Shown piece after piece: positions 1-64,000 of a stretch of 64,000 bases of DNA. The translations under genes and the position numbers were made by a program. The DNA lies in the NCBI GenBank assembly GCA_025677605.1, contig GCA_025677605.1_4110.1; one strand, 5' to 3'. Numbering within the stretch: position 1 is the stretch's first letter; each line of letters opens with the position of its first letter. The stretch comes from a phage. The notes beneath the pieces were generated by a model that saw only the letters and a program-made list of their open reading frames with translations, did not search any database and was not told where the DNA came from.

Positions 1-34
1 ATTTTAACAGTACTTGCATGGTATAGAATCATCA

Positions 35-634
35 TCAATCCTCAGTGAGAATACAGTTCAGGTACGAACACAGTTCATCGTAGAAGAGTTTGTCCAGTAC
101 TGTAAGGTAACAGATACCGTTCTCTTTCATTGCAGCCTGTATCTTATCATAACCATTCACTGTGTCAAGGATTTCTTGATAAGATAATGCATCATCATTA
201 ACAGTACTACTCTGGAATGCCATTTCTTCTATGTTATCGATGGGTTCCTCATCGGAATTTAAGAAGCCTCCATTTTGATATATAATGTAATCTTCATTCC
301 ATGATTTAGTGAAACGGAGCAGGATAGGTTCATTAGCGAACATTTCGATATCACCACTTTCAATGTCGTATGAACAATATAGATTACAGTCTTCATCTAT
401 GAATTCTGCCATAAAGATTGCAGTTCGAGAACCATCATATACATAAACTCCAGTTTTGTTCATCTCAACATCAACTGCCATTCCATTTTTGAATTGCATT
501 CGAATCGTGATTTTAAGACTTTGGAGTATGTTATTTTCTGTATCTTTAACACTATACAATCCACGATATCGTAACCACAAATCTTTGATAGTACTTAAAG
601 AATTGATTAAGTCTTCATTGGGATCTTTTTTCAT
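35..634 (-). CDS. FQ-motif family protein (uncharacterized tandem paralog)
   Basis: 199 aa ORF; motif EEMAFQSSTV near C-terminus; ATGA overlap with next gene. Confidence 0.6.
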   Translation of the reverse strand: MKKDPNEDLINSLSTIKDLWLRYRGLYSVKDTENNILQSLKITIRMQFKNGMAVDVEMNKTGVYVYDGSRTAIFMAEFIDEDCNLYCSYDIESGDIEMFANEPILLRFTKSWNEDYIIYQNGGFLNSDEEPIDNIEEMAFQSSTVNDDALSYQEILDTVNGYDKIQAAMKENGICYLTVLDKLFYDELCSYLNCILTED

Positions 635-1248
635 TCAGGTATTACCATATTGTTAATTAGTGTTTCTTTCTTGATGCAATCAGGCTTGATATAAATGAAC
701 ATCTTTCGTAGACTCTTCACTTTGTACCAATCATTCAGTACTGAAACCATAAGCCATAATTCTTCTGGTGTAGTGGTAACCTCTGTGATTACACCCATCT
801 GAAACAATGCACCCTTACAATCTTCAAGTGATTTCAGATCAGTCTTATACCCAGATTCAATATCCATTAGTGTTTTAGTTTTGGCATCATATGTGATGAA
901 CGATTCTTTTAGCGTTTTTCTTCCATCATTTAAGGTTAAAAACACTGGATTACCTGGACTAAACATGCACTCTTCAAATTCAGGAAATAAATCATGTGCT
1001 TCTTCATCATCGTCTTGGGTTAATTCCAGTACTAATTCATCTGTATAGATATTACAAATCCCAACGCTATATCTATTATACAGCGTTGTATATTGTGTGG
1101 GTTTTCCCTTTTTTGATAGCTTGAGTTCACTTTTCGGACCGTACTTGTCAAATAGTGTTTGTTTAGCTCTAATTAAATCTGGTGCAATGTTTAGTAAATC
1201 ACGTAGTGCTTTCTCGTACTTAACATACTCTGTTCTAATGTTAGTCAT
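631..1248 (-). CDS. FQ-family-like protein (diverged)
   Basis: 205 aa ORF in array; weak motif KGALFQMGVI. Confidence 0.5.
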   Translation of the reverse strand: MTNIRTEYVKYEKALRDLLNIAPDLIRAKQTLFDKYGPKSELKLSKKGKPTQYTTLYNRYSVGICNIYTDELVLELTQDDDEEAHDLFPEFEECMFSPGNPVFLTLNDGRKTLKESFITYDAKTKTLMDIESGYKTDLKSLEDCKGALFQMGVITEVTTTPEELWLMVSVLNDWYKVKSLRKMFIYIKPDCIKKETLINNMVIPE

Positions 1249-1780
1249 TGTAACCCTCTAAAAAATAATCTAATGTATCAAGTACATCACTATCAAAAAA
1301 ACAATTATTAACTACAACGATACCAGTATTATGTTCTAAATCATAACATTTATCCAGTACATTGATGCATTCATTGTACTCAATGATATCATGAAGAGTA
1401 CTGTGCTGAAAGTGTTCTTCTTCAGTGTACTCACAGTAATTAATATCAACACTGAACGATTGGTCGTTTCTTTTGCACGGATATAATTTAGTAGACTTTC
1501 GTCCAGACCATGTAATTGAATAACAACCAATCGAATTCTGTGGGATTTGTGTACCAGCATGAAGCATAATGTACAGAGCTTGCGAACTGTATGATTCAAC
1601 GTACAAACGGTTCTTATCTGCATTCATAACACAACCATCAATTGACATGCTTAGTGAATGTGACATTCTACTGGCTTTCCTGATGCCACGGCAGAAATTA
1701 ACATAACGCTGACGTAAGCTGTTAACTTTCTCAGGCCATAGCTCAAATTCTTTAGTATTTGATAATGTTGCAATGTGCAT
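1241..1780 (-). CDS. FQ-motif family protein
   Basis: 179 aa; motif EEHFQHSTLH. Confidence 0.6.
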   Translation of the reverse strand: MHIATLSNTKEFELWPEKVNSLRQRYVNFCRGIRKASRMSHSLSMSIDGCVMNADKNRLYVESYSSQALYIMLHAGTQIPQNSIGCYSITWSGRKSTKLYPCKRNDQSFSVDINYCEYTEEEHFQHSTLHDIIEYNECINVLDKCYDLEHNTGIVVVNNCFFDSDVLDTLDYFLEGYND

Positions 1781-1782
1781 TA

Positions 1783-2385
1783 TTATTCCTTAATAACTGG
1801 TATAGCAGACCAAATTCGTTTCATTAGTTCATCTTCTAATACCACATCAGTACTGATCTTTTTGTAGTTCATTGATAATAGAAAATTACATTTCAGTTCT
1901 GATTTTAATTTTTCATAAAGATCAATGTTCATATACATTTCTTCATACGAAGGTAAAGAATGAATTAATGAATTTTGAAAATACCATTCTTCGCTGAAAT
2001 CTTTCACTTCAACACTTTTGATATTCTTAAATGAATCCTTATCAAAATAATATGAAACATCAGAACCATTATAATGTGAAAATGTTTTGAATAATTTTAT
2101 TTCATTTGTTCTACGAAGAATTCTTTCATAGGACAGAATTTTACTATCTTCTAATTCACCATGAAGTATCAGTGAAATATCAAAATCATTTGCAAGTCCA
2201 GCACCAAGGCGTTTGAATGCTAGTGTAATTCGTTGTTCACATGCCGAGATTTCAATCCTGTAAAAATCAGTTGCATACGTTAACATAGAGTATGGGAGAT
2301 GCAACTTTTCATTATTAGAAATACTTTTAGCTAACGTAATGACAGGGTTAAGCATTTTATTAAGAATAGGCATGTCAATGATCAT
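1783..2385 (-). CDS. FQ-motif family protein
   Basis: 200 aa; motif EEWYFQNSLIH. Confidence 0.6.
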   Translation of the reverse strand: MIIDMPILNKMLNPVITLAKSISNNEKLHLPYSMLTYATDFYRIEISACEQRITLAFKRLGAGLANDFDISLILHGELEDSKILSYERILRRTNEIKLFKTFSHYNGSDVSYYFDKDSFKNIKSVEVKDFSEEWYFQNSLIHSLPSYEEMYMNIDLYEKLKSELKCNFLLSMNYKKISTDVVLEDELMKRIWSAIPVIKE

Positions 2386-2386
2386 A

Positions 2387-62261: not shown

Positions 62262-62265
62262 AAAT

Positions 62266-63456
62266 ATGTTACCTTTTGTTAGAATGTTTGATTACGGGAA
62301 TATAACACCAGTCCCTATTCAAATTAAGAAAATATCACCAACTGATTTAGATGTTGTCGTTCTTTATACGGATGGTCAACTATACGCACGTGGAAATAAT
62401 AGTTTTGGGAAGTTTGGTAGAGGAAATAGTAATGCAGTAAAGTCATGGACCTTAATTAGAGAAAATGTTAAAGATTTCTGGGTGTCACAAGGAACTTTGT
62501 TAGTACAAGATAATGACTTAAATTATTTTTATTGTGGATACGGTGATCATGTTGGTTTACCAACTAGTACTACAACATTTTTAAGTTATAACCAATATAT
62601 TGAAAATTTATACACACAAAGTTCAAGTACTTCAATTAAACAGATGTATGCAGGCACTACGTGGTTTACTTTCTTAATGGATAATAATACAATATGGAGT
62701 ACTGGTTGGAGTGGGGCTAGACAATTCGCTGATGGTACTGGAAAAACTCAACAAATAACAGATGGATCATTTGTAAAAGCTGTCACGCCTAATGTTGATA
62801 TTGCACAAATACAGTCAACAAATAACTGTGTAATGTTTTTTGATACACAAAATAATTTATATATTGGTGGTGGTACGTCAGGTATAAGTACCAGTACCAC
62901 ATGGACACCATTTAATGAATATACTTTATATAAACCAAGTACAACATACACAAAAACGTTACAATACACTGGATGCTCAAGTGGTGCAGTCAGTGCTTTG
63001 GTTGAGAATCCAAGTACTGGTGCACGTCAGTTTCTAGTTGGTGGTTTAGCGAGTAATGGTGCATGGGGTAACAATACCACAACCAGTTCGGCACTTGCTG
63101 TATTAGGGAGCAATAGTACGACATTACCAACTGGAACTTTGTATTCAATTCATACAGGATACCCAACACAATCTAGTATACTAGTTACGAGTACTGGTGT
63201 ATATGCAACTGGTTTAAATGCGAGTAGTTATGCTGGTTCGTTGGGTGTTGGTTCTAATGTTACTATTGGTAGATTTACTATATGTCCAATGCCAGCAGAA
63301 ATATCATATTCTATGTATGATAAAATAAAAATATATCGCGGTTCGTATCGTACTTTTCTAACTGCTGATATGAAAAATATATATTCAACCGGAACGTATG
63401 ATGATGGTGGTCCTAGTACAAATAGATATGTTCTGGATACACCTAGACAATTGTAA
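62266..63456 (+). CDS. beta-propeller repeat protein with conserved MLPFVRM N-terminus
   Basis: start at ATG 62266 after aaaggagg; repeats YARGNNSFGKFGRG. Confidence 0.65.
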   Translation: MLPFVRMFDYGNITPVPIQIKKISPTDLDVVVLYTDGQLYARGNNSFGKFGRGNSNAVKSWTLIRENVKDFWVSQGTLLVQDNDLNYFYCGYGDHVGLPTSTTTFLSYNQYIENLYTQSSSTSIKQMYAGTTWFTFLMDNNTIWSTGWSGARQFADGTGKTQQITDGSFVKAVTPNVDIAQIQSTNNCVMFFDTQNNLYIGGGTSGISTSTTWTPFNEYTLYKPSTTYTKTLQYTGCSSGAVSALVENPSTGARQFLVGGLASNGAWGNNTTTSSALAVLGSNSTTLPTGTLYSIHTGYPTQSSILVTSTGVYATGLNASSYAGSLGVGSNVTIGRFTICPMPAEISYSMYDKIKIYRGSYRTFLTADMKNIYSTGTYDDGGPSTNRYVLDTPRQL

Positions 63457-63463
63457 TAATTTC

Positions 63464-63493
63464 GCCAGTACTTGATACTGGCTTTTCTTTTTT
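63464..63493 (+). terminator. rho-independent terminator
   Basis: CCAGTACTTGATACTGG then T-run. Confidence 0.6.
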
Positions 63494-63523
63494 GATTAAA
63501 TATAGTATAATGAATAAAGGAGG
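63492..63523 (+). promoter_or_regulatory. conserved upstream cassette (promoter-like box + RBS)
   Basis: ttgattaaatatagtataatgaataaaggagg. Confidence 0.5.
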
Positions 63524-63527
63524 AAAT

Positions 63528-64000
63528 ATGTTACCTTTTGTAAGAATGTTGGATTATGGAAATAAAGTTTTACCATATATTCCCAATTTTGTTAAATTAG
63601 TTACACCATCGTGTGGTTATTCATATACATGTACAATGATGCTTGATAAAAATGGTTCAATATGGGCTATAGGTTTTCAGAATGGTGGAATTTTTGGTTT
63701 AGGTCATACTAATCCAGTAACTGAATGGACAAAAATATATAGCAATGTTAAAGATTTTTGGTGCAGTACAATGAACGCTTTTTGTCTAATACGCACAAAT
63801 GATGATAGATTCTTTTATAGTGGTTTAGATAAATGGCTGGGTAATAATACAACCAATAATATAACAACATTCACAGAATGTACAAGCTATTTTACACAAT
63901 TTGGAATTTCAAGAATTAAAGATATATACGTGGGTTATGATTATGCTTTGATTTTAGGTACAGATAATAGTTTATATTTGTTAGGTGATAATACTGGTTA
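63528..64000 (+). CDS. beta-propeller repeat protein with conserved MLPFVRM N-terminus (3' partial, runs off window)
   Basis: MLPFVRMLDYGNKVLPY...; no stop before window end. Confidence 0.6.
   Translation, partial: MLPFVRMLDYGNKVLPYIPNFVKLVTPSCGYSYTCTMMLDKNGSIWAIGFQNGGIFGLGHTNPVTEWTKIYSNVKDFWCSTMNAFCLIRTNDDRFFYSGLDKWLGNNTTNNITTFTECTSYFTQFGISRIKDIYVGYDYALILGTDNSLYLLGDNTG

Follow-up and report, generated by a model that had tools for sequence, protein, structure and literature searches.

AGTACT, a strongly enriched palindrome of Asteriusvirus and related jumbo phages, as a possible operator-like site of a clade-specific DNA-binding protein

Why would a phage genome that otherwise purges palindromes carry one palindromic hexamer, AGTACT, at high density? 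The question was raised by a 64,000-nucleotide stretch of phage DNA (contig GCA_025677605.1_4110.1 of assembly GCA_025677605.1; hereafter the window), in which an earlier inspection of the letters (the sequence-only reading) had reported a massive over-representation of this word and held that it implied a function. We ranked all 4,096 hexamers of the window, which has a GC content of 35%. AGTACT was the commonest hexamer, with 269 copies against 20.0 expected by a first-order Markov formula (observed-to-expected ratio, O/E, 13.4), and 200 dinucleotide-matched simulations yielded 19.9 ± 4.6 copies with a maximum of 32. The extended form CAGTACTG was present in 58 copies against 0.86 expected, and the longer forms TCAGTACTGA and TTCAGTACTGAA occurred 14 and 4 times, respectively. 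These results indicated that the reported over-representation was real, and the local count given with it (11 AGTACT in 52801-53580) was exact. AGTACT was the sole enriched palindromic hexamer; the second in rank had an O/E of only 1.56, and 25 of the other 63 had zero copies. The window genome purges palindromes, and AGTACT is the one exception. As a separate observation on shorter palindromes, GCGC was absent from the window against 48 copies expected, CGCG, CCGG and GGCC were near expectation, and CTAG had an O/E of 0.45 across the window yet was enriched in the noncoding hub described below (15 against 5.7).

In total, 158 open reading frames (ORFs) were called, which covered 86% of the window; as far as 57.6 kb, almost all of them were minus-strand ORFs. 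The coding AGTACT sites were spread over all three reading frames (92, 36 and 55). When codon order was shuffled, 26.5 ± 4.6 AGTACT were obtained in ORFs, compared with 184 observed (O/E ~7). A within-gene shuffle of synonymous codons, a null that already carries the codon bias of the motif itself, gave 64 ± 6 (O/E ~2.9). An artefact of composition, codon usage or dipeptides was ruled out by this 3-7 fold excess over the codon-aware nulls, and the ratio did not fall to about 1 after codon and dinucleotide modelling, an outcome that the sequence-only reading had allowed for.

Based on megablast, the window belongs to Asteriusvirus, a group of ~350-kb RaK2-like jumbo coliphages; the nearest record was Escherichia phage A4 (98.6% identity over window 1-25000), and other members were 87-90% identical. 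Against the member fEgEco12 (87.5% identity over 25 kb), 115 of 137 AGTACT were intact (84%), compared with 57% of all hexamers. The figures were 56/70 against 55% in coding sequence and 58/66 against 62% in noncoding sequence, and third codon positions within AGTACT were 92% conserved against 81%. In the comparison with A4, 192 of 204 sites were intact against a background of 85%, with 12 losses and 8 gains. Between fEgEco12 and the structural genes of GAP32 and Eneladusvirus, at ~71% identity, ~26% of sites were kept against a background of 18%, and the enrichment persisted at this identity despite site turnover. Single sites are weakly selected and turn over between genera, while their density is maintained. 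The wider clade comparison, which drew on parts of genomes, returned AGTACT as the top-ranked enriched hexamer in Klebsiella phage RaK2 (119 copies against 12 expected in 50 kb, with 8-10/kb in the early region), in Cronobacter phage GAP32 (84 against 12.4) and in the Erwinia Eneladusvirus pEa_SNUABM_49 (58 against 8.9). No enrichment was found in the two most distant jumbo relatives compared, Stenotrophomonas phage RAS14 (8 against 9.5; capsid protein ~47% identical) and Pseudomonas phage PA5oct (1 against 11.3). The argument from enrichment to function was partly supported by these data: a function at the level of DNA agrees with the occurrence in all frames, the excess over codon-aware nulls, the conservation and the recurrence in four genera.

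The distribution of the sites was then considered. AGTACT density was 3.6/kb in window 1-20 kb and 4.8/kb in 53.8-64 kb, with a median spacing of 155 bp. The sites were even along genes, with a coefficient of variation of spacing of ~0.8, and the largest gaps (959, 596 and 596 bp) were below the Poisson expectation; this even spacing suggests selection for coverage. The enrichment is genome-wide but not uniform, since ~19.7-26.0 kb and ~28.0-32.2 kb of the window lacked any AGTACT. The whole genome of fEgEco12 contained 1,115 AGTACT in 374.7 kb, its eight loci holding 204, 155, 114, 104, 96, 123, 150 and 169 copies, and its structural and replication genes carried ~2 per kb. The word has the distribution of a self mark of the uptake-signal type, dense in the phage's own DNA (3-6/kb) and sparse in that of the host, where one small 50-kb sample of E. 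coli K-12 held 3 copies (~0.06/kb); on this single sample, the densities differ roughly 50-fold.

The anatomy of the sites was that of a dimer operator, namely a palindrome with symmetric extended flanks and both halves selected jointly. C was found at position -1 in 47% and G at +1 in 43-46% of AGTACT sites, and farther out T was favoured at -3 and -4 and A at the mirror positions, in coding sites likewise. Extended forms such as AGTACTG were equal in number on both strands in every region. Outside the polar half-site blocks described below, the O/E was 15.3 for AGTACT, 2.13 for GTAC with one correct flank and 1.24 for bare GTAC. Since 15.3 far exceeds the square of 2.13, the strands are not read independently. 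Substitutions at the outer positions gave variants (TGTACT, AGTACA and AGTACC) with a 2.5-3.6 fold enrichment, and those at the inner positions ~1-1.7 fold. Such a pattern is typical of duplex recognition with graded affinity, and two independent single-strand signals do not fit it. Conversion of near-cognate sites by a very-short-patch-like process was ruled out, because the one-mismatch neighbours of AGTACT were not depleted (O/E 0.8-3.6). No genome-scale strand bias of the type known from Chi or the FtsK-orienting polar sequences (KOPS) was detected: the word is palindromic, its counts on the two strands are equal, and polarity is local to blocks B1 and B2. The LexA and TrpR boxes were rejected because the order and spacing of their half-sites did not match, and the 18-bp spacing that would form a LexA box was not enriched. 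Collectively, these results showed that the palindrome itself is the selected unit and is kept by purifying selection at high density throughout the genome.

The highest densities were associated with the early region. For fEgEco12, the genome ends are supported by experiment, and the direct terminal repeat measures 20,993 bp (PMC13070987). Judging from homology to fEgEco12 1-20,993 (PMC13070987), the window probably spans a collapsed ~21-kb terminal repeat with early genes plus both flanks. The left end of fEgEco12 (AGTAGGCAGAGG...) aligned to ~53,532 of the window on the minus strand, and the repeat, with ~55 small early genes, each under a separate promoter, had its lower limit at ~31.4-32.3 kb. 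This mapping makes the noncoding hub at 52.3-53.8 kb the probable junction of the right unique end and the repeat start. The clustering of AGTACT in the hub, described in the sequence-only reading, was recovered (14 sites).

In the intergenic regions of the repeat, we found sigma70-like promoters followed by a conserved leader hairpin, and AGTACT was present in 31 of 36 of these promoters. The arrangement TTGACA..AGTACT..TATAAT that had been pointed out before does exist, and the placement of the motif in it was fixed. AGTACT started 7 nt (16 cases), 17 nt (6) or 27 nt (15) upstream of TAnAAT. At the 7-nt offset it abutted the -10 hexamer; at 17 nt it shared its first A with the end of TTGACA, and at 27 nt its last T with the start of TTGACA or TTGCA. 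Four promoters carried two AGTACT sites 20 bp apart, and the surroundings in the spacer varied among promoters while AGTACT was constant. The 31 promoter cases are not independent events, because the cassettes are paralogous. A general sigma70 element was not indicated, as the 183 coding sites lacked a downstream TATAAT signal. The other context named in the sequence-only reading, terminator stems, was marginal: the hairpin CCAGTACTTGATACTGG exists, but as three copies of one repeated element. Regarding the leader, early transcripts of the intergenic regions at 33-52 kb would start with a conserved GC-rich hairpin (GGGGAGAATAGTTCTCCCC and variants), located between promoter and ribosome-binding site and without an Rfam match.

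Besides the fixed promoter placement, a second feature went beyond the sequence-only reading, namely an AGTACT-free block of co-oriented half-sites. Two polar blocks (B1 and B2) and a dense centre (C) between them adjoin the terminal-repeat boundary (Table 1). On the plus strand of B1, AGTAC had 0 copies against 2.9 expected, and the half-site GTACT was 9-fold enriched; by type, there were 41-43 TGTACT, 7 CGTACT and 2 GGTACT, ~120 bp apart and inside genes. TGTACT reads AGTACA on the sense (minus) strand and was represented in each of the three frames (12, 18 and 12), with varied flanking sequence. A promoter within B1 carried CAGTACC in place of CAGTACT. B2 had the opposite polarity and a weaker signal. 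The polarity of the blocks does not follow transcription, since all genes there share one strand. The same layout was found in fEgEco12 (L002 22-38 kb) and in A4 (L001 26-38 kb), and 11 of 13 alignable B1 half-sites were identical in fEgEco12. RaK2 had no strict polar block, with a mild bias only at 248-251 kb. The B1 proteins had no recognisable function by Pfam and PHROGs, and neither GC nor AT skew pointed clearly to an origin or terminus at ~27 kb. Based on the GTAC/GTACT enrichment and the layout kept in fEgEco12 and A4, it was ruled out that the blocks are recent DNA that does not yet carry the motif. The cheapest mutational escape was likewise ruled out for B1, because AGTACA stood in frames where the T-to-A change alters the protein, at sites where a synonymous escape (TAC to TAT) existed. 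A sequencing artefact is unlikely, as the pattern was present in three independently deposited records (the window, A4 and fEgEco12). B1 argues that whatever reads AGTACT can also tell the strands apart.

Taken together, these results suggest, with a probability of roughly 0.4, that AGTACT is an operator-like site for a clade-specific dimeric DNA-binding protein, whose roles would be to occupy early promoters and to mark or coat the DNA of the phage. The word would form the centre of a palindromic, operator-like site (ttCAGTACTGaa). Its reader, a homodimer that would recognise this sequence in duplex DNA, may be particular to enterobacterial RaK2-like jumbo phages and would most likely be phage-encoded. 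Occlusion of early promoters by this reader could shut off or modulate early transcription, and with ~1,100 sites per genome it could preferentially coat or mark phage DNA over host DNA, as a sequence-coded counterpart of the phage nucleoid proteins TF1 (SPO1) and p6 (phi29). At the co-oriented half-sites of B1, the same reader might also act in a directional single-half-site mode. The dimeric binder fits best because of the symmetric graded flanks, the synergy of the halves, the promoter placement and the host contrast, and also because the top densities fall in the DNA that probably enters first. Among the functions listed in the sequence-only reading, a DNA-binding site agrees best with the data, a modification or nicking target is a possible alternative, and a packaging signal is unlikely.

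Several observations weigh against the dimeric binder. A symmetric dimer leaves the 52 half-sites of B1, all broken on the same side, unexplained; the explanation does not account for a directional half-site step, and polarity of this strand-specific kind is more suggestive of an enzyme or of a machine that tracks along DNA. The three fixed promoter positions may stem from few independent origins, the cassettes being paralogous, and with ~1,100 sites in genes, a classical repressor would be titrated away. The restriction to phages of Enterobacterales equally fits a host-encoded reader. Furthermore, neither a helix-turn-helix or comparable DNA-binding domain nor a methyltransferase was detected by Pfam among 150 window ORFs, and the annotated "transcriptional regulators" of fEgEco12 were without any Pfam domain. 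The domains that were detected in the 150 ORFs were RCC1-like propellers, a methyl-accepting chemotaxis protein (MCP) signalling domain, Kelch repeats, a ParE-like domain and a NUMOD4 motif.

The main rival holds that a phage-encoded Type II-like enzyme acts on AGTACT, as a methyltransferase, as a homodimeric endonuclease that nicks or cleaves, or as both; we regard this as possible but doubtful. Full palindromes would be acted on in both strands and the half-broken TGTACT/AGTACA in one strand only, so that B1 would be a zone of strand-specific nicking or hemimethylation, for example for a strand-displacement start or clamp loading near the repeat boundary. No other reading naturally explains why the breaks of the B1 half-sites all fall on one side. 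In strict single orientation and without full sites, the half-sites of B1 (52) and B2 (9) form the pattern that a strand-choosing enzyme would select; the B1 sites are kept as AGTAC plus any base but T, even at amino-acid cost; and 11 of the 13 B1 sites compared with fEgEco12 are conserved. The palindromic hexamer has the specificity of ScaI, and the phages encode Dam-family (PF05869) and C5 methyltransferases, several HNH and GIY-YIG nucleases, a ligase, PseT and a WGR-domain protein. The DNA of RaK2 has been reported to be methylated, by C5 methylation at CpG (PMC3622015). That methylation cannot involve AGTACT, because the word contains no CpG. The DNA of fEgEco12 was cut as predicted by ten restriction enzymes, ScaI and RsaI not among them (PMC13070987), so it is not globally hypermodified. 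Among the annotated candidates of fEgEco12, only the Dam-family (PF05869) and a 286-aa C5 (PF00145) methyltransferase were confirmed, and neither could be assigned to AGTACT; no ScaI-like gene was found among the annotated methyltransferases and regulators (Pfam), the B1 proteins (Pfam and PHROGs) or the 150 window ORFs. In addition, enrichment of a genome's own restriction or modification site has no known precedent and would bring no clear advantage, Type II enzymes do not usually show flank preferences as far out as ±4, and the decay of lost sites was not dominated by C-to-T changes. The dimeric binder and the strand-specific behaviour could also be joined. On this tentative and rather doubtful proposal, AGTACT would be a self mark read in two ways by one clade-specific machine, as a genome-wide duplex palindrome for coating and early-promoter control, and as a strand-specific half-site array of 6 kb beside the repeat boundary for a directional signal. 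Such a signal might be a zone of one-strand nicking or loading from which duplication of the 21-kb repeat or replication would start, or which would drive second-step DNA entry. To our knowledge, no two-mode self-mark system has been described in phages.

It is improbable that a replication or recombination machine reads a 5-mer (AGTAC or GTACT) on each strand, as a primase site or a Chi-like signal, with the palindrome serving both strands and the blocks marking a fixed origin or terminus that needs one strand. The coverage-like distribution, the mirror-opposed polarity of B1 and B2 around a dense centre and the phage's own T4-like primase, helicase and replisome agree with such a machine, and phage primase sites typically contain a GT dinucleotide. 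The primase sites known are only three nucleotides long, however, and the halves are not independently selected (2.1 fold for half-only sites, 15.3 fold for the palindrome). The fixed positions beside promoter hexamers would remain unexplained, the B2 signal is weak (9 against 3.4 expected), RaK2 lacks a strict block, and the phage already holds co-oriented genuine E. coli Chi in the repeat. A protein of the Enterobacterales host, recruited or titrated by the phage, is a still weaker candidate. The enrichment occurs only in relatives that infect Escherichia, Klebsiella, Cronobacter and Erwinia and is absent or reversed in the Pseudomonas and Stenotrophomonas relatives, but PA5oct and RAS14 also stand farthest away among the relatives, and a reader encoded by the phage would explain the distribution equally well. 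The nucleoid-occlusion factor SlmA would be the obvious host protein: its site GTGAGTACTCAC is a palindrome bound by a dimer with an identical AGTACT core, and G1, T2, a purine at position 3, A4 and G5 are required in GTRAGYRCTYAC (PMC3020112). These required flanks (G1, T2, purine at 3) are absent or disfavoured in the phage sites, which have T at -3 and C at -1, with G at -1 depleted and GAGTACTC present in 0 copies against ~8 expected. The window held no full match to the SlmA site and one site within one mismatch, most AGTACT being 3-6 mismatches off, and recruitment of SlmA was judged improbable, because the flanks do not fit (PMC3020112). Cleavage by a phage type II topoisomerase, with AGTACT as a preferred site spread to unlink the 370-kb genome, is very improbable. 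The 4-bp stagger would fall on GTAC with symmetric flanks, which agrees with the dyad symmetry around a 4-bp centre, the coverage-like distribution and the T4-like topoisomerase II subunits encoded by the phage; no topoisomerase is known to impose a 10-15 fold hexamer enrichment, and the promoter placement and the polar block would be left unexplained. We give least credence to a packaging (pac/terminase) signal or to a by-product of composition, codon use or duplicated promoter cassettes. The hub cluster does adjoin the inferred physical end, and many noncoding copies lie in paralogous promoter cassettes. Against this, 183 of the 269 sites are coding, in all frames and far above codon-aware nulls, ~2 per kb persist in structural genes 150-250 kb from the ends, and the end is flanked by TGATTAC repeats and a CCATCTAG array with no unique arrangement of AGTACT. 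Packaging is made unlikely by the spread of the sites over the whole genome and by the TGATTAC repeats around the inferred end; on the same grounds, AGTACT was rejected as the terminase site despite a copy 12-20 bp away.

Comparison with known systems was made for the proposed functions. No prior report of an AGTACT motif in jumbo phages was found in the searchable full-text literature, including the papers on Sharanji, fEgEco12, CBB, RaK2 and PA5oct; subscription journals, such as that of the GAP32 genome paper, were outside the reach of the search. TF1 of SPO1 and p6 of phi29 are abundant phage nucleoid proteins that prefer phage DNA and repress early promoters. The proposed reader would resemble them in binding along its own genome, covering early promoters and telling phage from host. 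TF1, however, recognises hydroxymethyluracil DNA and p6 bendability, whereas the present sites are a discrete palindromic word in ~1,100 copies; the likeness is one of function only, as no homologue was identified. Chi, KOPS, uptake signal sequences and DNA uptake sequences are likewise short words at ~1 or more per kb, present in coding and noncoding DNA, kept as density and used to separate self from foreign. They are asymmetric, strand-polar and bacterial, while AGTACT is a phage palindrome that is polar in one 6-kb block only. Plasmid Rep proteins read inverted repeats as dimers, for repression, and co-oriented sites as monomers, for directional assembly. This iteron/operator duality, together with the opposed DnaA-box arrays in oriC, parallels the promoter palindromes and B1 half-sites; iterons, however, are ~20 bp long, tightly spaced and noncoding, and the B1 half-sites are 5-6 bp long, ~120 bp apart and genic. 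A Rep-like protein was not identified. Strict single-strand orientation and nicking have precedents in T7, where all EcoP15I sites (CAGCAG) have one orientation, and in the one-strand nicks of T5. The T7 orientation serves to evade restriction and involves no enrichment, whereas the B1 half-site is 9-fold enriched. The ScaI restriction-modification system has AGTACT as its recognition sequence, and the chloroviruses, with CviQI, are a viral example of enzymes of this type that act on GTAC; genomes are not known to enrich their own restriction-modification sites, though, and no cognate gene was found here.

Table 1. Features of the window and their coordinates
Feature	Position	Strand	Remarks
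AGTACT sites, consensus ttCAGTACTGaa	1..64000		183 in ORFs (3.3/kb), 84 noncoding (9.6/kb), 2 across an ORF edge
Block B1	19679..26018 (6.3 kb)	+	52 GTACT against 5.8 expected; AGTACT 0
Centre C, between the half-site blocks	26116..27921		14 full AGTACT in 1.9 kb
Block B2	28550..31548	+	9 AGTACA (3.4 expected); AGTACT 0, GTACT 0 on +
Early-gene part of the probable collapsed repeat	32204..52300	-	121 AGTACT (6.0/kb)
Chi positions (CCACCAGC on +)	33,648; 33,871; 35,773; 37,691; 40,040; 41,033; 41,301; 46,212
Early promoter with two AGTACT 20 bp apart	35838..35924	-	AGTACT-TGACA..AGTACT-G-TATAAT, then leader hairpin GGGGAGAATAGTTCTCCCC
Noncoding hub	52301..53776		14 AGTACT (9.5/kb), mostly tCAGTACTGAa
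Terminator-like hairpin CCAGTACTTGATACTGG, three copies, each behind an RCC1-like paralogue	60951, 62203, 63465 (60951..63481)	+

Several further features were observed in the window. The inferred left physical end at ~53,532 lay 12 bp from a TTCAGTACTGA and 12-20 bp from an AGTACT. TGATTAC (GTAATCA) repeats were found on either side of this end (window 53,446-53,651; fEgEco12 L002 60-100 and L009 3,560-3,600), and they appear to be a better candidate for terminase recognition than AGTACT. In the hub, ~0.8 kb inside the inferred end, an 8-bp tandem array of CCATCTAG (CTAGATGG on the minus strand) comprised ~11 copies at 52,588-52,756, with super-periods of 16, 32 and 40 bp and an iteron-like look. 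At the repeat boundary, a 273-aa ORF (31,382-32,203) without AGTACT was present in the window and A4 and not in fEgEco12. Eight E. coli Chi sites (GCTGGTGG; CCACCAGC on the plus strand) were located on the minus strand, all within the terminal repeat, where ~0.1 would be expected; a strand bias of Chi was also seen in fEgEco12 (10 against 2) and in the RaK2 early region (9 against 1). In this orientation, they would halt RecBCD entering from the right genome end, which looks like protection of the end by host Chi. At 53,777-57,650, an array of paralogous ~60-aa ORFs, the GC skew was +0.14 to +0.19 despite minus-strand ORF calls, and the skew elsewhere on minus genes was negative; either the strand calls or the origin of this block differ from the remainder. 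The window also contained a 421-aa ORF with an MCP signalling domain (6,092-7,357) and an array of RCC1-like beta-propeller paralogues (57,692-63,456). An Rfam scan of the window found nothing.

The RaK2-like phages (Asteriusvirus, Alcyoneusvirus, Mimasvirus and Eneladusvirus) are under development for therapy, and >80% of their genes are uncharacterised. One selected word that makes up ~2% of the genome (~1,100 sites in 375 kb) provides an experimental handle on a putative central DNA-reading factor, and B1 is a defined locus at which strand-specific nicking or directional assembly beside the 21-kb repeat could be looked for. The ~50-fold density contrast with the host could serve for spotting these phages in sequence data. 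Finally, a phage that purges palindromes can strongly enrich one of them, which complicates the use of palindrome avoidance as a read-out of restriction pressure.

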